Source: Escherichia phage vB_Eco_Maverick. Taken from it: a stretch of 42,624 nt of DNA. Shown one piece after another: positions 1 through 42,624 of the stretch. The notes under the pieces are model-generated. The model was given only the letters and a program-made list of their open reading frames with translations, was not told where the DNA came from and searched no databases. Location of the stretch: the sequence record NC_073077.1; one strand, given 5' to 3'. The position numbers were made by a program, and so were the translations under genes. The stretch's first letter is position 1. Each line of letters opens with the position of its first letter.

Positions 1-127
1 GGGGCGGGACAAAGCGGGACAGCACCCAGTCCCCGCCAGTGCTGCCGCGGTTTTCAGCCGATCGGGACAAGCGGGACAAAGCCCAGTCTTTCAGACTAGA
101 CGGGGGTCAACGGCCCCCCTCGTCTGA
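1..127. repeat. terminal exact repeat; bases 1-127 are identical to 42498-42624 (assembly overlap of a circular or terminally redundant genome)
   Basis: Direct comparison of the first and last 127 nt of the window shows identity; 127 nt is also a common assembler k-mer length. Confidence 0.85.
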
Positions 128-200
128 GACTGAATAAGGTTTGTTTGAAATTCGCTGATACAATGACAGTCGGCAACTGCATAAAAAAGGGGACTGCATA

Positions 201-9783: not shown

Positions 9784-10272
9784 ATGGCAGCGGGCACACT
9801 ATCCGTAACGAATAACAGCAAGGCGGTTGTCGGAGTAGGCACAACGTTTACCGCGTTTAAAGCTGGCGACTTCTTAACGCTGGTGGTAGGGCAAGTCCCC
9901 TACACCGTGGCAATCGCGTCCATTGAAAGCGCAACCGAGCTTACGCTGGTGCTGCCGTTCGACGGCCCAACGGCAACCGGCCTTGCGTGGGATGGCGTTA
10001 AGCGCGATACCATGTCGCTGGCAACGATGGGCGTTACCGTACAGGCCCAAAAAGCATTGCGCTTGATGATTGCAGATGAAAACAACTGGCGTGCAATCTT
10101 CGGCGACGCTGAAGAAATCACAGTGACGTTACCTACCGGGCAAGTTATGCAGGGTATGTCGTGGGGCTACCTGTCGCAGCTAATGAAGCAGATTCGCCCC
10201 GTTGAAATCGCGGAATTAAAAGCTGCCGTTGAGGAGTTGAAAGCCGCGGTCGCGGCACTGACAAAAGCATAA
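9784..10272 (+). CDS. hypothetical tail-associated protein (N-terminal domain paralogous to 2879-3478)
   Basis: GAGGA Shine-Dalgarno before ATG 9784; N-terminus GTLSVTNNSKAVVGVGTTF resembles 2879 ORF; C-terminal coiled-coil (EIAELKAAVEELKAAVAAL); followed by terminator. Confidence 0.5.
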   Translation: MAAGTLSVTNNSKAVVGVGTTFTAFKAGDFLTLVVGQVPYTVAIASIESATELTLVLPFDGPTATGLAWDGVKRDTMSLATMGVTVQAQKALRLMIADENNWRAIFGDAEEITVTLPTGQVMQGMSWGYLSQLMKQIRPVEIAELKAAVEELKAAVAALTKA

Positions 10273-10277
10273 TGAGA

Positions 10278-10299
10278 AGGGGCCAAACGGCCCCTTTTT
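10278..10299. terminator. bidirectional rho-independent terminator
   Basis: aggggcc-aaac-ggcccct stem followed by ttttt, between convergent genes 9784-10272 (+) and 10300-10875 (-). Confidence 0.7.
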
Positions 10300-10875
10300 C
10301 TAGTTTGAGTTTTCCCAGTCCATTTTGCGCCGCACCAGCGGGCTTTCGTAATATTCCTTGCCCTCAACTTCCACTAATGGCCAGTCATTAACAATCACGT
10401 ACGGCTCCGCGATATCTTCAATAACGCCGTGCGCGCTTTGTGGCCCTAACGACACACCCACCAGGATAACACCGGCAACGCGACGGGTAAGATACTCGCG
10501 AGCGCAACGCGCCTCTACCAGTCCGCGACGGATGCCGCTGGTGGCCTTAATTTCGTAGGTCCATACGGCATCGACCACATGCTCGCGGAAGTCGGGACCG
10601 GACTTTACCTTGCGCTTGCCGACCATGATAATATCGCCGCGGTCAATGGTATTGGCGCTAAACAGGCCGGTACGCATAAGCAAACCTTGCGGGATGCAAC
10701 TACGCCCGCCCGCCTGCCCTTCAAGGTACATGCCTGCAAACATTTCGCCAAGCACACCGACCAGTCGGCTTTGCTTGCACGCGTCAGACTTTAAGCGCCA
10801 CTGATCAAACTCGATGCTTGCTATCATTGCCGCCAGGTGGAATTGTTTACCGGATATTTCATATTCGCCGTACAT
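10300..10875 (-). CDS. hypothetical protein, possible PD-(D/E)xK-type nuclease
   Basis: 191-aa ORF; segment GDIIMVGKRK...VDAVWTYEIKA fits a D...E-x-K nuclease signature; assignment tentative. Confidence 0.45.
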   Translation of the reverse strand: MYGEYEISGKQFHLAAMIASIEFDQWRLKSDACKQSRLVGVLGEMFAGMYLEGQAGGRSCIPQGLLMRTGLFSANTIDRGDIIMVGKRKVKSGPDFREHVVDAVWTYEIKATSGIRRGLVEARCAREYLTRRVAGVILVGVSLGPQSAHGVIEDIAEPYVIVNDWPLVEVEGKEYYESPLVRRKMDWENSN

Positions 10876-10917
10876 CGTGTGGTCCTCATTGATGCGGGCC
10901 GAAGCCCGCGATTAGAA

Positions 10918-11439
10918 TTATTTCAGTGCGCCAGTCACCAGTGTTTTTTCCATGTTGCGGAAGTCTTCCGGCGTCATGAGGATTTTGGACCCGTCTTCGC
11001 CAGTTAGAACGACCATAGGCTGGACGTCTTGATCTGCAATGCCGAAATTGGCGGCTTTAACCATCTTGCCAGCCGATGCAGAAGGATGCCGCGTCCCCGC
11101 GGTGGCGATGGGCCAACCTTTAAGGCTATCGTATTGCGCTGCCGTCGTATCGACCTGAATCTCATCATGAACGGTCATGTAGGATTCGCCCAGCAAGGCC
11201 GCATACGCTACCAGGTCGACGATATTGTCTTCCTGGTGCTTACGGTGCTGGCGCACCAGCTTCAGGCAGATCAAGAAGGTCCAGGCTTCTTGCTCGGTAA
11301 GGTTGCGCCCGGTAAGCGCGTTAAACACGGCGGCGACCTGTTTAGCGCTGCGTTCGTCTTTCGCGTTGTCATAGCCGTTTTCTTTCCCGCGCTGTTCCAT
11401 AGTGGTGGCGGCGTTTTTGCAGTATTCGTATGCTTTCAT
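10918..11439 (-). CDS. hypothetical protein, possibly nucleotide-metabolism related
   Basis: 173-aa ORF with AAGGA Shine-Dalgarno; all-alpha-looking N-terminal region; no firm motif recognised. Confidence 0.45.
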   Translation of the reverse strand: MKAYEYCKNAATTMEQRGKENGYDNAKDERSAKQVAAVFNALTGRNLTEQEAWTFLICLKLVRQHRKHQEDNIVDLVAYAALLGESYMTVHDEIQVDTTAAQYDSLKGWPIATAGTRHPSASAGKMVKAANFGIADQDVQPMVVLTGEDGSKILMTPEDFRNMEKTLVTGALK

Positions 11440-11502
11440 TATGTGGTCCTTTTTATGGGAGGCCGTATTGCCTCCCGACGCGTTAACTATAGTGCAACCA
11501 AC

Positions 11503-11973
11503 CTATTGGTTGCAAGTGAATTTTGCAACGTTTATTGCGTAAATTTTCGGGACCAAATCGCTACACGCCCGACGAATTGCCGCGATGTTCTTCTCGCAAT
11601 CTTCAATGATGACCAGTTCCGACACGTCTGCATAGCAGACCATCTTGAACACGGCACACGCTTTAAACTCTGGCGGCGGGGTGTCATCCAGCATGTGGCG
11701 CATAAACAACCGGCCTGTCGGGAATACTTCCAGTTGCTCGGCGGTAGTCTCCCAACATTCGCGCTGCCGGTTAGTCAGATACGCTATCTCGAAGCCTTGC
11801 TCTTTGTACATGCGCAGCAGCGGCAGCATATCCATGTTCAGGTCTTCGCGTACGTGCGCTTTGTGCCACTTTGCCCAAAAGGTTGATTTCGTTTTTATCC
11901 CCGGCACCAGGTCGGCACGCGCATCGCTTGAGCCATTAATAACGCCATCCAAATCGCAAATCAGTAATTTCAT
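11503..11973 (-). CDS. HAD-superfamily phosphatase-like protein
   Basis: N-terminal MKLLICDLDGVI matches HAD motif I (DxDG); downstream Thr and acidic motifs present; 156 aa. Confidence 0.6.
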   Translation of the reverse strand: MKLLICDLDGVINGSSDARADLVPGIKTKSTFWAKWHKAHVREDLNMDMLPLLRMYKEQGFEIAYLTNRQRECWETTAEQLEVFPTGRLFMRHMLDDTPPPEFKACAVFKMVCYADVSELVIIEDCEKNIAAIRRACSDLVPKIYAINVAKFTCNQ

Positions 11974-12194
11974 TTTAAACTCTCAATAAGGGTGTAACGG
12001 GCGCTTCGCGCAGTAAAGGAGTTGCACACGAAATGGCAACGCTGAGTCATGACAAGCCATCCGGTGAGGTCAAGGCCCAGGATGTATTCGGGGCGAGAAG
12101 CGCGCACCACACGATCTCGGCGCGGGTCGATGTTATAGTCTCTTTGCATTCGGTCTACTACCGCAGGGTCGCGGTCAACGATTAAGATATTCAA
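11970..12194 (-). CDS. hypothetical protein
   Basis: 74-aa ORF translationally coupled to flanking minus-strand genes. Confidence 0.4.
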   Translation of the reverse strand: MNILIVDRDPAVVDRMQRDYNIDPRRDRVVRASRPEYILGLDLTGWLVMTQRCHFVCNSFTARSARYTLIESLK

Positions 12195-12660
12195 GGAGTT
12201 CTCCTTCGCTCATTATTTCAATTTGTGCGCTGCCGATTGGTGGCGCTTCGTCAAAGATTATCAATTGCTGGCACTTGTTATTGCTCGGCCCGACTTCACC
12301 GGAGACGGCGTGAATGAATCTAATCCGCCAGTCCAGAAGAATTATCAGGTTTGCAGTCTTCCGGGCAAGCCTCGCCCACTTCGTCGACGTGTCCTGATTC
12401 AGTAGCATGACAGTCCGTCGTCCGTGCGCGGCACACTCTACCCACGGCAGCGGATCGGAATACGGCGGATTGCACCACTTCCACCCTTTCAACTCGGACC
12501 AGTCCACATCAAGCGCGCTGTGTTCCGCCGTGAAGTAACGCGGTAGCAGATGATTGGCGTCGCTTGCCGCCATATCGTAACGGAATCGGTATTTCCGACG
12601 AAGCGGTTTGAATAAAGCTGGCGGCGTGCGCCAGCTATCTTTTTGCTCACTCTTCTGCAT
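12175..12660 (-). CDS. DNA N6-adenine methyltransferase (phage Dam-like)
   Basis: 161 aa containing the catalytic NPPY tetrapeptide (WCNPPYSD) and the overall shape of small phage Dam methyltransferases. Confidence 0.75.
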   Translation of the reverse strand: MQKSEQKDSWRTPPALFKPLRRKYRFRYDMAASDANHLLPRYFTAEHSALDVDWSELKGWKWCNPPYSDPLPWVECAAHGRRTVMLLNQDTSTKWARLARKTANLIILLDWRIRFIHAVSGEVGPSNNKCQQLIIFDEAPPIGSAQIEIMSEGELLEYLNR

Positions 12661-23112: not shown

Positions 23113-23141
23113 ATTATTACACGCGTGCGCGCCCGTTTCAA
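23113..23141 (-). promoter_or_regulatory. candidate sigma70-like promoter for the putative small RNA
   Basis: Minus strand TTGAAA (plus 23136-23141), 17-nt spacer, AATAAT (plus 23113-23118). Confidence 0.3.
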
Positions 23142-23213
23142 TATCCAAAGGATTTGACACCATGCAGTTTTAGGTGTAGTTTCGTTGGTCATTAACCAAC
23201 AGGAGACTGAATT

Positions 23214-23543
23214 ATGAATATCAAAGAAGCAATTGAAGTGTTATCTAATGCAATCCGCGGCGAAGCGGGTAAATCCTGGTATTACACAAATGCGGTGGAT
23301 ACTCTGTTATTTGAAGTGTCCAGATTATCGCGTGCTGAGAAGGAGCTTACCGCGAAGCTGGAATTGCTCAACGGCACGGCAGCAAGCAAGCTGCAAAAAC
23401 ACAATGAAGAAATGGAAGAATACAAAAAGCAGGTTATCCGTTTGCGCAATGAGGGAAAGTCATGGGCAATGATCGCCGAGTTGACCGGAATTAATCAGAG
23501 CACAGTGCGCTCCTGGGTACGCAATAATAAAACTTCAAAGTAA
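23214..23543 (+). CDS. helix-turn-helix DNA-binding protein (putative transcriptional regulator)
   Basis: 109 aa with coiled-coil centre and C-terminal HTH (KSWAMIAELTGINQSTVRSWV); AGGAG Shine-Dalgarno; first gene of the plus-strand block. Confidence 0.55.
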   Translation: MNIKEAIEVLSNAIRGEAGKSWYYTNAVDTLLFEVSRLSRAEKELTAKLELLNGTAASKLQKHNEEMEEYKKQVIRLRNEGKSWAMIAELTGINQSTVRSWVRNNKTSK

Positions 23544-23553
23544 GGCAACGGCA

Positions 23554-25818
23554 ATGAGCTTGATTAAATTCGCTGTAACACGACCCGCTAAAAAAGGCGA
23601 AAAAGCCAGGGCGGAAAACTTCCAGATGACTACCGAAGAGTTTTTCGAATTTATCAATGATGCGAAAGAAATCTCCTCGGTGCATATCAACAAAACGGAA
23701 GATAAAGCGGAGTATGCGCGCCGCAAGCGTAAGGCTGATGGGATTGTGGCTTATACCAGTGACGGATTACGCCGCAAGACCAGTGCGGTGGATCGCTCGA
23801 TCCTGTTCTTCGATATTGACCGTACCGACACCCGCACCCTGCGCCGCTGCCGTAAGGCGTTCATCGACGCGGGACTGGAACATGTATTTCACACCACAAC
23901 CGGCGATCGCCACCCGCTGAAAGGTGGCACGCGTTGCGCTCGTTTCCTGGTGCTCACTGACAAGCCTGTACCGGCTGAAGACCTGGGCCGCGTCCAGTAT
24001 GCACTATTACACCAACTGGGCCTGTCAGATGTGGACTTCGACGATTGCACGAAAGACACAAACCGCCTTATGTACCTGCCTCACCAGCAATCGGTTGTTA
24101 AGTGTCACTACGGCAAACGTGCCCGCGTCCGTCGTCTGCTGCGCCTGGCGGATAAGCTGGGAGTGGAAAAAGAGGAAGTACGCCGCGAACTAACCCAGGG
24201 CGATGACGGCGTGGCGGACGGCATTCTGGATTGGTGCTTCCAGGCCGGATTCGAACCGCTGTCGTCCGGTCGTGGTTATGAAGTGCCATGCCCGAACGAA
24301 CATCTGCACAGCGGCGAAGGGTCGACGGCTATCATGGTCAAGGATGGCGAGATCCGTTTCAAGTGTATGCACACCGGCAACGAGTGTTGCTCGGAACTGA
24401 ACAGACACCAGCACCTGGCGCTACGTCTTATCGGGATCCCGGACCACCTGAACGTCGAACCGCACAACATGTCACGTAAGCAAATAGCCGCCATCCTCCC
24501 AGGTCTGGACGACGAGGAAGTGGAATCGTGCTATGAACATATCGTTGATGCGGTTGGCGACGGCGACGAGTACGGCGGATGTACGGACGCAGACCTGGAC
24601 AACGAGCCGGTTGCACTGTTCAGTAAACACGACCCGATCATCGAGGGGTTGATTAACTTCAAATCGACCTGGTATATGGCGGGCGAGTCGAACATCGGTA
24701 AATCGTTCTACGTGCTGGGCCAAATGGGTGCTGTTGCCGCGGGTATTCCGTTCGGTGGTGCGAAGGTCGTCCAGTCTCATTGCTTCTATTTCGACGCGGA
24801 AGGTGGCGAAGCCTCCAACCAGCGTAAGGAAGCATTGCAGATTAAATATGAGCACGACCTGGACAAGCTGCACATTATCGATCTGCAATCACGCGGCTGG
24901 GATATCACCAGCAAATCCGGCTTGCGTGAAGTTATCAGCTTCATCAACCGCACCGCTAACGGCGAGCCGGTTGGCCTGGTGGCGTTCGACTCACTCAACC
25001 AGACTGTTGCGCTGCGGTCCGCCGATGCTAAACCGTTCGACGAGAACAACGCCAGCGATATGGGCGAAGTGGTCAAAGCGCTGAAGGCCATTGCGGAAAA
25101 TACAGGCGGCAGTGCGGGCGTCATCCACCACCCGGCGAAAGGTGCAAACGGCAGCAGATCCCCCCGCGGGTCCGGCGCGCTGCATGGTGCTGTTGATTCT
25201 GCGTTCTTCCTGGAACAGCCGGACGACAACCAGCCCGGACAACTGAACCTGTATCACGAGAAGGCACGTAACGGCATCAAGCAAGCGCCGCGCGGATTCG
25301 TCCTGCTCAAGTGCAAGGTTAAGGTGGATCTCCGCAAGTCCGAGGCGTTCGAAGCCCACCAGTCCACCAGCACCGGGCCGGACTTCGGTGACGTCGTTGC
25401 CGGTTGGGACGTCAAGCCGATTGCATCCACGCCTCGCGACGAGACTCTTTACCTCGTACCTGTCGCCCTGGCACCGTTCGCTATCGAACAGGCGAAGGCA
25501 GCGGGCAAGGCCGCAGTTAAGGAAGAGAACACCGCCGGACCGCGCACCGAAAAAGAAAAGGTACTTTACGCGGCCCTGGAAAAACTGATGGAAGATAACC
25601 CGGACCATACCGGATTCAGCAAATCGGCAATTGTCCGCCAGGCTGGGCTTGCGAAAGGTGGCACATCGACGAAGGCAATTGACGATATGGTCGAGCGCGG
25701 CGTGCTAGGTTTTTATACAGACCCACACACCGGGGCCATCTATGGGTCGTCGAATATCGTCATCAAAACGAATATACCCATCACGCTTTCGGCGACCGAC
25801 GACGACCTGAAAGATTAA
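23554..25818 (+). CDS. DNA primase-helicase (primase-polymerase-like N-terminus, RecA/DnaB-type ATPase, C-terminal DNA-binding region)
   Basis: N-terminal acidic motif FFDIDRTD and a Cys/His cluster (CPNEHLH...C..H); Walker A GESNIGKSFYVLG and Walker B LVAFDSLNQ; C-terminal winged-helix-like segment FSKSAIVRQAGLAKGG. Confidence 0.75.
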   Translation: MSLIKFAVTRPAKKGEKARAENFQMTTEEFFEFINDAKEISSVHINKTEDKAEYARRKRKADGIVAYTSDGLRRKTSAVDRSILFFDIDRTDTRTLRRCRKAFIDAGLEHVFHTTTGDRHPLKGGTRCARFLVLTDKPVPAEDLGRVQYALLHQLGLSDVDFDDCTKDTNRLMYLPHQQSVVKCHYGKRARVRRLLRLADKLGVEKEEVRRELTQGDDGVADGILDWCFQAGFEPLSSGRGYEVPCPNEHLHSGEGSTAIMVKDGEIRFKCMHTGNECCSELNRHQHLALRLIGIPDHLNVEPHNMSRKQIAAILPGLDDEEVESCYEHIVDAVGDGDEYGGCTDADLDNEPVALFSKHDPIIEGLINFKSTWYMAGESNIGKSFYVLGQMGAVAAGIPFGGAKVVQSHCFYFDAEGGEASNQRKEALQIKYEHDLDKLHIIDLQSRGWDITSKSGLREVISFINRTANGEPVGLVAFDSLNQTVALRSADAKPFDENNASDMGEVVKALKAIAENTGGSAGVIHHPAKGANGSRSPRGSGALHGAVDSAFFLEQPDDNQPGQLNLYHEKARNGIKQAPRGFVLLKCKVKVDLRKSEAFEAHQSTSTGPDFGDVVAGWDVKPIASTPRDETLYLVPVALAPFAIEQAKAAGKAAVKEENTAGPRTEKEKVLYAALEKLMEDNPDHTGFSKSAIVRQAGLAKGGTSTKAIDDMVERGVLGFYTDPHTGAIYGSSNIVIKTNIPITLSATDDDLKD

Positions 25819-25928: not shown

Positions 25929-25978
25929 GTGTAGTGTAAATATAATGAATAGTTATGCAGTTTTATTGCATAAAGTAG

Positions 25979-26128
25979 GCGGGACAGAAAGCGGGACAAA
26001 CAGGGGGCGGGACAAAGCGGGACAGCACCCCCGTCCCGCCCCGGATGACGCGGCTTCCAGAGGAGCGGGACAGCGGGACAGCACCCCAGTCTTTCAGACT
26101 AGACGGGGGTCAACGGCCCCCCTCGTCT
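25979..26128. repeat. iteron cluster: six direct GCGGGACA octamers plus one inverted copy, ending in a 28-nt GC hairpin (internal copy)
   Basis: GCGGGACA at 25979, 25991, 26007, 26017, 26065, 26073; inverted GTCCCGC at 26033; hairpin agacgggggtcaacggcccccctcgtct at 26101-26128; TGCATAAA box at 25967. Confidence 0.85.
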
Positions 26129-26295
26129 GAGACTGAATAAAATCCGGGGATTGCAAAATACACGGCAGCATGATGCGAAGTGCGGTCGTCGATGAACTAG
26201 GCAACCAATGCGGGTTGTATTATGCTGAGTGAAAAATGCAGTTTTCAGCCACAGCTGATATCGATCAACTTTTTCATGCGCGTGATTAATATTGG

Positions 26296-30809: not shown

Positions 30810-30939
30810 CGGCAACCCATAAGCCTCCCAGCCTGCCGATTTGGTGGGCTTTTTTGTGCCTGTTATAATCCCCCTTAGATGGCAGGGCCGTCTCCTATGT
30901 TGCCGATGGTCGGCGCATATGAACAAAAGGGCTTATATC

Positions 30940-31491
30940 ATGGCAGAAATTAAAGTTAAGGGCCGACGCGCCAAACTGGACGGACGAGTAGCAGTAACCC
31001 CTCGCCGTAAACCAGGCGAGCAAACCGAGCACACCAATCTCGGACCTGAAATCGAGTACGGAAAGCGCCGTAAAGGCGGCAAATGTGGACGCCCTACTGA
31101 CTACCGATCCGTTTACTGCGACCAGCTTCGCCGCTATTTTGCCGACGCCGACGCATGGCAGGTCAACTACTCCGATAAAGGCGCTGCGCAAGTAATCCCC
31201 CGGAACAAAATGCCAACCTTCGGCCGATTTGCCGCTGAAATCGGCGTGGGCGTAGCTTGCTTGTATCGCTGGGCGCGTGCGCATGAGGAGTTTGCCGAGG
31301 CGATGGCGGACGCAATGGAGTTGCAGAAAACTTTCCTGATGGAAGCTGGCGGCGTAACCATCGCGGCGGGCTTCGCTACGTTCCTGCTTAAAGCAAACCA
31401 CGGCGTCCGCGACGATGTACCGCTGGATGACGACGAAGATGATAACGGCGACGTAGTTGTCGAACCTTCCGGCAAAGGTCAGGGTGAATAA
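30940..31491 (+). CDS. terminase small subunit
   Basis: 183-aa basic N-terminus and acidic C-terminus, directly upstream of and overlapping the large terminase; start at MAEIKVKG with AAGG Shine-Dalgarno, alternative starts at 30919 or 30841. Confidence 0.6.
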   Translation: MAEIKVKGRRAKLDGRVAVTPRRKPGEQTEHTNLGPEIEYGKRRKGGKCGRPTDYRSVYCDQLRRYFADADAWQVNYSDKGAAQVIPRNKMPTFGRFAAEIGVGVACLYRWARAHEEFAEAMADAMELQKTFLMEAGGVTIAAGFATFLLKANHGVRDDVPLDDDEDDNGDVVVEPSGKGQGE

Positions 31492-41646: not shown

Positions 41647-42009
41647 ATGGCTAAAGCACCACTCTTCACACTTGACCCTAAGCCAACCTTTAAGCTGCCG
41701 ATTGAGATCCCGCGCCCTGGTGAGAACGAACCAGGCAAGATGACGTTTACCGTACGCCACCGCCCGATCGACGAGTTTTCGCAGACCATGCAGGACACCG
41801 AACGCAAGCTGTCGGAATATGACGACAATGACCCGGACGGCTTTAACGTTATGGTCGAGGCCATCATGCACGTCGCAGAAGGCTGGAATCTGCCGGACGA
41901 ATTTAACGCGGAGAACGTCCGCCGCCTGGTGGTCAACTATCCACGCGCGTTCGGTGTGTTCCACACGTCGTACTATCTCGAACTGATGGGGTTGCGTGAA
42001 AAAAACTAA
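41647..42009 (+). CDS. tail assembly chaperone G
   Basis: 120-aa acidic ORF between major tail and tape-measure genes; GGAG Shine-Dalgarno; ends ...REKN-stop with slippery A_AAA_AAC at its 3' end. Confidence 0.7.
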   Translation: MAKAPLFTLDPKPTFKLPIEIPRPGENEPGKMTFTVRHRPIDEFSQTMQDTERKLSEYDDNDPDGFNVMVEAIMHVAEGWNLPDEFNAENVRRLVVNYPRAFGVFHTSYYLELMGLREKN

Positions 42010-42323
42010 TTGAGGCGGCGCGACGCTTTTATGGCCCGCCGCCACCCTCCGAAGATTTAGCCGCAAGTTTATGGGGCGCGGCCCCCGAAGATGTTTGTCC
42101 ACCTGTTGCGCTGTGGCCCGACAACGCGAAGGTAGTCGCAGTCTTCACAGATTGCTCCACGCAATGGCGCACCGGATTTGGTGGCGCATACGGCATCGAC
42201 TACGGCGTGCTGGAGTGGTTATTTAAGATGCACGGTATCGAAAACGAACAGCGCGCGTTTAAAGATATCAAGCTAATGGAACGAATAGCGCTTGATGAGA
42301 TGGCGCAGCAGAACCACGCATAA
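41647..42323 (+). CDS. tail assembly chaperone G-T fusion, made by -1 programmed frameshift at 42000-42006
   Basis: After a -1 slip on A_AAA_AAC the reading frame stays open for about 105 codons (…LIEAARRFYGPPPPSEDLAASLWG…) to the TAA at 42321-42323; this frame has no in-frame start of its own. Confidence 0.6.
42000..42006 (+). other. -1 ribosomal frameshift slippery heptamer A_AAA_AAC
   Basis: Heptamer sits in the zero frame of gene G three codons before its stop; X_XXY_YYZ pattern. Confidence 0.6.
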
Positions 42324-42327
42324 TGAA

Positions 42328-42621
42328 GCGGGACGTCCCGCTTTGTCCCGCCCTGTAAAACCGCATATCTAATCACTTTCATTGCATAAACTCAAAGCGG
42401 GACAGGCGGGACGTCCCGTTTTGTCCCACCCACGAAATGTGCATACCTATTCGAATTTCGTGCATAAAACAAGCGGGACAGAAAGCGGGACAGACAAGGG
42501 GCGGGACAAAGCGGGACAGCACCCAGTCCCCGCCAGTGCTGCCGCGGTTTTCAGCCGATCGGGACAAGCGGGACAAAGCCCAGTCTTTCAGACTAGACGG
42601 GGGTCAACGGCCCCCCTCGTC
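42328..42621. repeat. iteron cluster: GCGGGACGTCCCGC palindromes, about seven direct GCGGGACA octamers, two TGCATAAA boxes, ending in the same 28-nt hairpin (terminal copy, continues into bases 1-200)
   Basis: Palindrome at 42328-42341 and 42406-42418; GCGGGACA at 42397, 42473, 42485, 42501, 42511, 42568; TGCATAAA at 42383 and 42461; hairpin at 42594-42621. Confidence 0.85.
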
Positions 42622-42624
42622 TGA

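Follow-up and report, generated by a model that had tools for sequence, protein, structure and literature searches.

A conserved pair of iteron-hairpin elements 16 kb apart as candidate replication sites of Dhillonvirus phages

Introduction

In lambda-type tail operons the G-T chaperone and tape-measure genes normally abut. In Escherichia phage vB_Eco_Maverick (NC_073077.1) the same junction is split by repeat-rich, non-coding DNA (hereafter copy A), and a similar element (copy B) stands behind the helicase-primase gene. What are these two elements, and what might they do? The original prediction, made from the letters of this genome, likened them to the bipartite ori/crr arrangement of P4 and named packaging initiation or regulation as alternatives. 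Here we address the question in a window of 42,624 nt, by which we mean the whole stretch of DNA that was analysed, with positions counted from its first letter.

Dhillonviruses are among the most commonly isolated coliphages, and they include members of the BASEL collection as well as therapy candidates. To our knowledge, an origin, a pac site or a late-control element has yet to be mapped in any of them, and the group is described as understudied in published announcements (PMC9022532).

Results

Genome record and length of the gap

The last 127 nt of the window (42498-42624) repeat its first 127 nt (1-127) exactly, which means that the record is a circular assembly with a k-mer overlap and that the unique circle measures 42,497 bp. 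An overlap of this length is what a circularised de Bruijn assembly with k=127 leaves behind, as opposed to a biological terminal repeat; the assembly break falls inside copy A. Escherichia phage vB_Eco_CS16 shows 100% identity to the window across the regions compared, and 157 Dhillonvirus records give matches to it. Rightward genes occupy the arc from 23214 past the window end to about 10272, leftward genes the stretch from 22991 to 10300, and GC skew across the window tracks the direction of transcription only, being uninformative on origins.

The G chaperone ORF ends at 42009, while T, read in the -1 frame from the GAAAAAAAC slip site onward, has its stop at 42321-42323, followed by a TGA. 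The tape-measure ATG lies at 201, and since 42498-42624 equals 1-127, the non-coding gap from the T stop to this ATG amounts to 374 nt, in agreement with the roughly 375 bp first proposed.

Anatomy of the two elements

The octamer GCGGGACA occurs 18 times in the window, equivalent to 15 times in the unique circle, compared with 1.99 +/- 1.39 in shuffled sequence (0 of 100 shuffles reached 18). Thirteen of the 15 unique copies fall into two clusters, 25979-26080 and 42344-42624/1-78, and only two lie elsewhere (14578 on the minus strand, 16110 on the plus strand). Copies A and B stand 16.4 kb apart, carry this same octamer and share one orientation. Aligned from TGCATAAA to GAATAA, a stretch of about 175 nt, the cores of A and B show 83-84% identity, and they do not differ at all in their last 56 nt (CCCAGTCTTTCAGACTAGACGGGGGTCAACGGCCCCCCTCGTCTGAGACTGAATAA), so the idea of a second iteron element made of the same building blocks stands. 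The 1-nt indels between the copies argue against coding.

Both cores follow one order: an AT-rich box ending in TGCATAAA, four direct repeats, an inverted repeat, a GC-rich spacer of about 30 nt between the repeat sets, two direct repeats and a hairpin. The six direct CGGGACA repeats of each core (4+2) start at spacings of 12, 16, 10, 48-49 and then 8 (B) or 9 (A) nt, and the inverted GTCCC(C/G) after repeat 4 could pair with either repeat 3 or repeat 4. Every element has a single conserved hairpin, a 49-nt imperfect structure that ends the core (CAGTC-TT-TCAGAC-TA-GA-C-GGGGG/loop/CCCCC-C-TC-GTCTGA-GACTG) and folds as DNA at -13.4 kcal/mol (z -3.05).

Copy B starts 148 nt after the helicase-primase stop. 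Its core (25966..26140, plus strand) has GCGGGACA at 25979, 25991, 26007, 26017, 26065 and 26073, the inverted GTCCCG at 26033 and the hairpin at 26087-26135, which is followed by the tail GAATAA. The stretch adjoining the iterons upstream (25930..25969; 23% GC) is in the lowest 0.6% of genome windows in a 30-nt GC profile and makes a candidate unwinding element; it holds TGCATAAA (25967-25974) as well as TGAATAGTTATGCA (25946-25959), a 14-bp near-palindrome unique in the genome and common to Salmonella phage St162.

Copy A is longer. Its core, unit c, runs on the plus strand from 42461 to 42624 (repeats at 42473, 42485, 42501, 42511, 42560 and 42568; hairpin from 42581) and continues at 1..137 (repeats at 4, 14, 63 and 71; hairpin 84-132; tail GAGACTGAATAA ending at 137). 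Two extra upstream units, found only in copy A (42328-42390 and 42406-42468, 75% alike), each combine a GCGGGAC-GTCCCGC palindrome with an inverted repeat and an AT-rich box that has TGCATAAA at its end. Unit a (42324..42396, plus strand) begins right after the T stop, with the palindrome at 42328-42341 followed by TTTG, the inverted repeat TGTCCCGC at 42344-42351 and an AT-rich box whose TGCATAAA end lies at 42383-42390. Unit b (42397..42472, plus strand) has a repeat at 42397, the palindrome GCGGGACGTCCCG at 42406-42418, a degenerate inverted repeat and the AT-rich box TGCATACCTATTCG..TGCATAAA at 42440-42468, in which TGCATACCTATTCG (42440-42453) is the reverse complement of the copy-B palindrome TGAATAGTTATGCA. 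The three AT-rich boxes of copy A have a GC content of 33-40%.

Conservation and gene conversion within Dhillonvirus

Essentially every one of the 157 Dhillonvirus records has both copies, at these same positions. We found them in SO-1, Ioannina, LM40P1, UAE_MI-01 and HH3, and also in metagenomic relatives whose helicase-primases are as little as 68% identical. The element measures 173-175 nt with invariant repeat spacing (10 + 28 homologous elements). A scan of IMG/VR with the left hairpin arm gave 29 matches, all in Dhillonvirus contigs of 42-45 kb, most of which had two; within IMG/VR the hairpin was not found outside Dhillonvirus genomes and never in more than two copies per contig. The pair had already been annotated in the GenBank record of Sodalis phage SO-1 (NC_013600, 2009) as the repeat_region features 'region A' and 'region B'. 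They correspond in kind and position to our two copies; the entry is annotation only and speaks of direct, inverted and palindromic repeats that resemble each other. A search of the literature library found nothing on Dhillonvirus repeats, promoters or origins beyond this GenBank note. A and B are a real, ancient and strongly constrained pair of cis-elements.

The two copies nevertheless exchange sequence. A-type and B-type spacers are orthologous across genomes, and Ioannina and LM40P1 each show lineage-specific changes common to their own A and B. Full identity of the A and B hairpins, as first described for this isolate, is limited to it and a few others; in most genomes loops and tails differ, with TCAAYGG + GAATAA as the A type and GTCTGGCA or GTATTGT + GCATAAAA as the B type. 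These loop and tail types are swapped between A and B in several isolates, this one included (26085-26140 vs 79-137; loci L020-L048): copy B of the window bears an A-type hairpin, implying that gene conversion is frequent. The pattern points to recurrent conversion between sites 16 kb apart. Variation in the hairpin is confined to the loop, the stems being essentially constant, and there are accordingly no compensatory changes that could speak for or against an RNA structure.

Relatives outside the genus

A short-repeat array stands directly after the helicase-primase gene in five lineages, with CGGGACA in Dhillonvirus and L015, (A/T)CGCCCCG / GCCCGCCCC in Eiauvirus, TTGCGAGT/ACTCGCAA in the metagenomic L017 (helicase-primase 49% identical), GGGGGAGA in Salmonella phage St162 and inverted pairs of TTCCGCACA in Serratia phage Smarc3. 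A lineage-specific repeat array next to this gene is thus common; Golestan, T102 and UTEC10, with helicase-primases 32-34% identical, have no non-coding gap after it.

The second site can be followed as well. Eiauvirus, the sister genus (Edwardsiella phage eiAU-183), has long non-coding DNA at both the A and the B position, and its two sites share the repeat, an AT-rich TTATTGATTTA box and a 50-nt block that is 88% identical, with a related hairpin in copy A. In eiAU-183 about 1.1 kb of DNA separate G-T from the tape measure and include an annotated leftward ORF, gp54 (L014, 42367-42720), which shows that this junction tolerates insertions. L017 has its second copy 9.8 kb downstream of the first, after a head-morphogenesis gene (78-nt block, 83% identical), and Smarc3 has a third inverted TTCCGCACA pair at 10436, together with a large GC hairpin, in the head-gene region; in St162 a second repeat cluster was not found. 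A second site with the same repeat thus recurs at varying places of the late region in Eiauvirus, L017 and Smarc3. Relatives lacking the insert had been named as a possible objection to a role for the element, and St162 and Smarc3 do lack it between G-T and the tape measure, a junction that the L017 sequence does not cover. This does not refute such a role; two of the three relatives checked (L017 and Smarc3, not St162) carry the second copy after a head-morphogenesis gene.

Could the pair simply be a selfish or neutral, MITE-like repeat that was duplicated and persists without function? The existence of two copies and the frequent A/B conversion at the hairpin would suit such an origin, but fixation at the same two positions in essentially all records, invariant repeat number and spacing, the confinement of the IMG/VR hairpin to Dhillonvirus at no more than two per contig, and the fact that Eiauvirus keeps both sites with a different repeat make it very improbable. 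The related objection that the second copy is a recent duplication fails on the same distribution.

The helicase-primase and other candidate binders

The helicase-primase gene (23554..25818, plus strand) encodes 754 aa with a predicted AEP prim-pol, Zn ribbon, RepA/AAA_25 helicase and C-terminal winged helix, and on the strength of the models its product is a candidate iteron-binding initiator. Pfam recognises AAA_25 alone (2.4e-19), and the protein belongs to PHROG 3228, replicative helicase-primase. The AF2 prediction was built on a 42-sequence alignment; the C-terminal fragment as sole protein query gave a single match, and a full-length query was needed. The N-terminal model (pLDDT 86) best matches the AEP domain of the cyanophage S-2L PrimPol (6zp9_A, E 3.7e-5), followed by Prim-PolC and LigD polymerase, and the domain has an invariant DxD and a Cys/His cluster. 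Residues 666-737 are modelled as an H-b-H-H-b-b winged helix (pLDDT 81-90). Almost all of the top PDB matches listed for it are winged-helix DNA binders, with weak E values (8e-3 to 0.3), and the P4 alpha domain is absent among them.

Between repeat lineages the winged helix diverges most, at 26-36% identity compared with 62-69% for the helicase core. Every phage with the CGGGACA repeat retains the putative recognition helix of this domain, GGT(S/N)T(K/T)AI. TerS and a small HTH protein (109 aa, encoded just before the helicase-primase) also diverge in parallel with the repeats, and because all three diverge together, covariation cannot name the binder.

A side observation concerns L016, a metagenomic Dhillonvirus (10001-12244), in which the N-terminal primase domain is 60% identical to ours and the helicase, linker and winged helix 95-100%. 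It is a case of domain-level mosaicism inside a replication gene; the L016 repeats are unchanged despite the swapped N-terminal domain.

Position relative to terS and the ends of records

The parallel divergence of TerS brings in another explanation, namely that the repeats are packaging signals: TerS sites flanking a pac cleavage region, with headful series that start at B and perhaps A. The pac hexamers of P1 and the pacL/pacR sites of SPP1 are models for such an arrangement. In P22/Sf6-type TerS phages, pac usually lies in or beside terS. Here, both sites are distant from the small terminase gene terS (30841-31491), copy B lying 4.7 kb upstream and copy A 11.5 kb downstream of it, and two pac sites in the same orientation would be unusual. 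On the other side, Dhillonviruses do package by headful (PMC9022532; PMC10059673), and the syntenic non-coding DNA of Smarc3 bears a 'pac site' in its GenBank record, which lies about 450 nt past the stop codon of the helicase-primase gene but about 370 nt from the repeats.

Four independent records or assemblies break inside A or B. The linear HH3 record (L013) ends exactly at the copy-B hairpin tail, after ...GAGACTGCATAA, and the records of UAE_MI-01 (L009 position 1), eiAU-183 (L014 ends) and the window itself break inside copy A. These ends would fit packaging initiation, but assemblers break at two-copy repeats, so that such breaks need no physical end, and the BF9 record starts at an arbitrary break inside a tail gene. 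Record starts as a clue to physical ends are further weakened by the many records that are set to terS by convention. The cos sequence reported for EE09 (ATCTTAAGGG) is absent from the window. Weighing these points, we regard a packaging function of the repeats as unlikely.

Transcription signals around the elements

Both copies lie at operon boundaries, oriented with rightward transcription, and they could be transcriptional control modules heading two late units, in which a lineage-specific regulator such as the 109-aa HTH protein binds the repeats and the hairpin acts in RNA, by processing, stabilising or put/nut-like antitermination. Several features of the flanks would suit this explanation. 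Right after the T stop comes the unit-a palindrome with its TTTG, which is weakly terminator-like (T-runs follow only the 42328 and 42406 palindromes, as TTTG or TTTTG); in Ioannina and LM40P1 a canonical terminator (GGCCGG..CCGGCCTTTTT) stands in its place. Downstream of copy A there is a conserved extended -10-like element, TGATACAAT (156..164, plus strand), which precedes the tape-measure ATG by about 37 nt. It has no second copy in the window, is kept in all five Dhillonvirus genomes compared while its flanks vary, and suggests that the tape-measure gene starts a new transcription unit; a simple -35/-10 scan did not pick it up. Copy B is flanked by ATTGGTTGC boxes and a TTGCAT-17-TATATT promoter, the type of the small HTH protein changes between repeat lineages, and in L017 and Smarc3 the second site also sits in an intergenic gap of a late operon.

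Other results speak against it. An early regulator should act at the early divergent promoters, yet that region is free of repeat copies; within 100 nt downstream of the copy-B hairpin there is no recognisable promoter, and promoter and terminator scans at both elements gave nothing convincing. The 49-nt hairpin is ruled out as an intrinsic terminator, having no U tract on either strand and being followed by GAATAA/GCATAA. Rfam 15 gave 0 matches at the gathering threshold across the whole window, the whole element as RNA is not unusually structured (z -1.6), and the stems stay constant instead of covarying, a pattern that recognition at the level of DNA would also explain. Control of late transcription therefore strikes us as a doubtful main role. 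We also dropped the idea of a CsrA sponge (GGA in GGGACA), because the repeats of other lineages have no GGA.

Other repeated boxes in the genome

Several further boxes were noted along the way. The octamer ACGGCAGC is present in 28 copies against about 3 expected (z 13) and ACGGCAAC in 22 against 3.6. As ACGGCARC they total 50 copies, 37 of them on the plus strand, in all reading frames and in sense, antisense and intergenic positions (for example 1860, 3745, 4549, 9365, 26162 and 40921 on the plus strand; 9951, 14416 and 35205 on the minus strand). A related box follows each A/B hairpin by 27-39 nt (ACGGCAGC at 26162, TCGGCAAC at 170), and CGGCAGC/CGGCAAC boxes are found in the matching non-coding regions of relatives. 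ACGGCARC is a signal at the level of DNA, with a primase start site or a Chi-like role as candidates.

Of the box ATTGGTTGC there are 16 copies where 0.3 would be expected, and by our reading of the ORF list most of them lie at gene boundaries or close to them (9759, 11505, 13410, 13427, 16363, 23015, 25830, 25884, 25919, 26201, 26291, 26322, 27000, 29496, 36730 and 36743), with three copies just upstream and three just downstream of copy B. As GCAACCAAC the motif forms arrays in both non-coding regions of eiAU-183, and TGGTTGC is found in Smarc3 and L017 even though their small HTH regulators are of a different type. ATTGGTTGC is probably a promoter-associated box for a conserved factor. In 23130-23215 there is a candidate rightward early promoter (TTGACA-17-TAGTTT), followed, just before the HTH gene, by the palindrome GTTGGTCATTAACCAAC, a likely operator whose half-site resembles the ATTGGTTGC box.

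Finally, TGAATAGTTATGCA is common to Dhillonvirus and St162 although their repeats differ (25946-25959; 42440-42453 as reverse complement; L006 12718-12752), and St162 has two such boxes 21 bp apart. The box resembles an ARG box of ArgR, which we judge to be 12/14 to the consensus. Its conservation may point to a host factor used by both or to a phage factor that is itself conserved.

Discussion

What, then, could hold two such elements in place? The most economical explanation, to which we give about even chances, is that A and B are cis-acting replication sites, with an origin (B) beside the initiator gene and a second site (A) for the same protein. Copy B would be the ancestral origin. Its initiator would unite three parts in one polypeptide, namely an AEP primase, a hexameric helicase of RepA type and a C-terminal winged helix. 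The winged helices would recognise the six GCGGGACA repeats, the helicase would assemble and open the adjacent AT-rich box, and the 49-nt inverted repeat would be extruded as a hairpin, serving as a structural or priming signal in the manner of ssiA/ssiB of RSF1010 or the stem-loop of pRN1. The same protein would engage copy A, which would be either a second origin in its own right or, like P4 crr, an enhancer in cis of the first. Here we infer both which protein binds the repeats and that replication starts at the elements.

Speaking for an origin are the rigid, non-random repeat architecture, the position after the helicase-primase gene, the recurring two-site layout, the predicted protein domains, the AT-rich neighbour and the precedents of P4, RSF1010 and pRN1. 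The points against it are that GC-rich DNA separates the two repeat sets, in contrast to SaPI-type origins, that the GenBank record of a relative places a pac site in the syntenic non-coding region, that Golestan, T102 and UTEC10 do without a gap after the helicase-primase gene, and that the winged-helix matches are weak. The roles in replication, packaging and transcription are not mutually exclusive.

The comparison with P4 deserves some care. The resemblance to ori/crr seen in the original prediction is borne out as regards two separated cis regions that share the same short repeat; an alpha-type protein, however, is not part of it. P4 alpha uses a winged helix to bind origin repeats (PMC4234260), and a multifunctional primase-helicase with a C-terminal winged helix is likewise predicted here. 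Further support comes from the fact that copy B adjoins the 3' end of the primase-helicase gene and that the lineage-specific repeats change in step at both sites. On the other hand, alpha joins a Toprim primase to an SF3 helicase, whereas the protein here has AEP and RepA/AAA_25 parts, so that the catalytic parts are not homologous, and the elements here are 16.4 kb apart, each with a conserved hairpin. Since the protein is AEP/RepA-type and not alpha-type, this is analogy with P4 and not membership.

RSF1010 oriV (IncQ), at which RepC binds iterons, RepA is the helicase and RepB' the primase acting at ssiA/ssiB, offers a second precedent, as it too uses iterons and ssi stem-loops (PMC4234260). 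The likeness lies in iterons beside GC-rich and AT-rich segments with a conserved stem-loop, in a helicase of the same broad family (AAA_25; weak PDB match to 1g8y RepA) and in a primase of archaeo-eukaryotic type. The differences are that the three activities would here sit on one polypeptide, that each element has one hairpin orientation as opposed to two opposed ssi sites, and that this is a virulent phage with its own Pol A. In pRN1 the origin has been described directly as a stem-loop downstream of the gene for an AEP-helicase-WH protein (orf904), and a similar stem-loop follows the replication gene of Bordetella phage BIP-1 (PMC4234260). The order of a small regulator, an AEP-helicase-winged-helix protein and a non-coding stem-loop directly downstream is the same as here (PMC4234260), but pRN1 has no iterons and an SF3 helicase, whereas in our phage a short 49-nt hairpin follows six repeats and there is a second copy. 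By analogy, the elements would resemble P4 ori/crr or RSF1010 oriV in their working while being homologous to neither. The element pair, flagged before in one GenBank record, is best filed under the theme of iteron origins.

A bolder hypothesis is that Dhillonvirus, Eiauvirus, Smarc3-like and L017-like siphoviruses, a widespread set of virulent enterobacterial phages, share an obligatory two-site origin. One AEP-primase/RepA-helicase/winged-helix protein would have to engage both distant iteron-hairpin elements, of which one adjoins its gene and the other occupies a gap in the structural operon; the working would be that of P4 ori/crr, and DNA looping might be involved. Through the second site, replication would further be coupled to the expression of downstream late genes (here the tape measure and tail tip), and the ACGGCARC octamer, dispersed in 50 copies, would tell the primase where to start. 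In this full form we consider the proposal speculative and unlikely.

The element pair is the most conspicuous non-coding feature of this genome and provides a concrete candidate for its origin. If the pair should instead turn out to serve packaging or late control, a basic gap for the engineering of these phages would still be filled. If the need for two sites is true, it would explain the split junction between G-T and the tape measure, and it would extend the ori/crr principle of P4 from one satellite to many virulent phages, with an AEP-based initiator.
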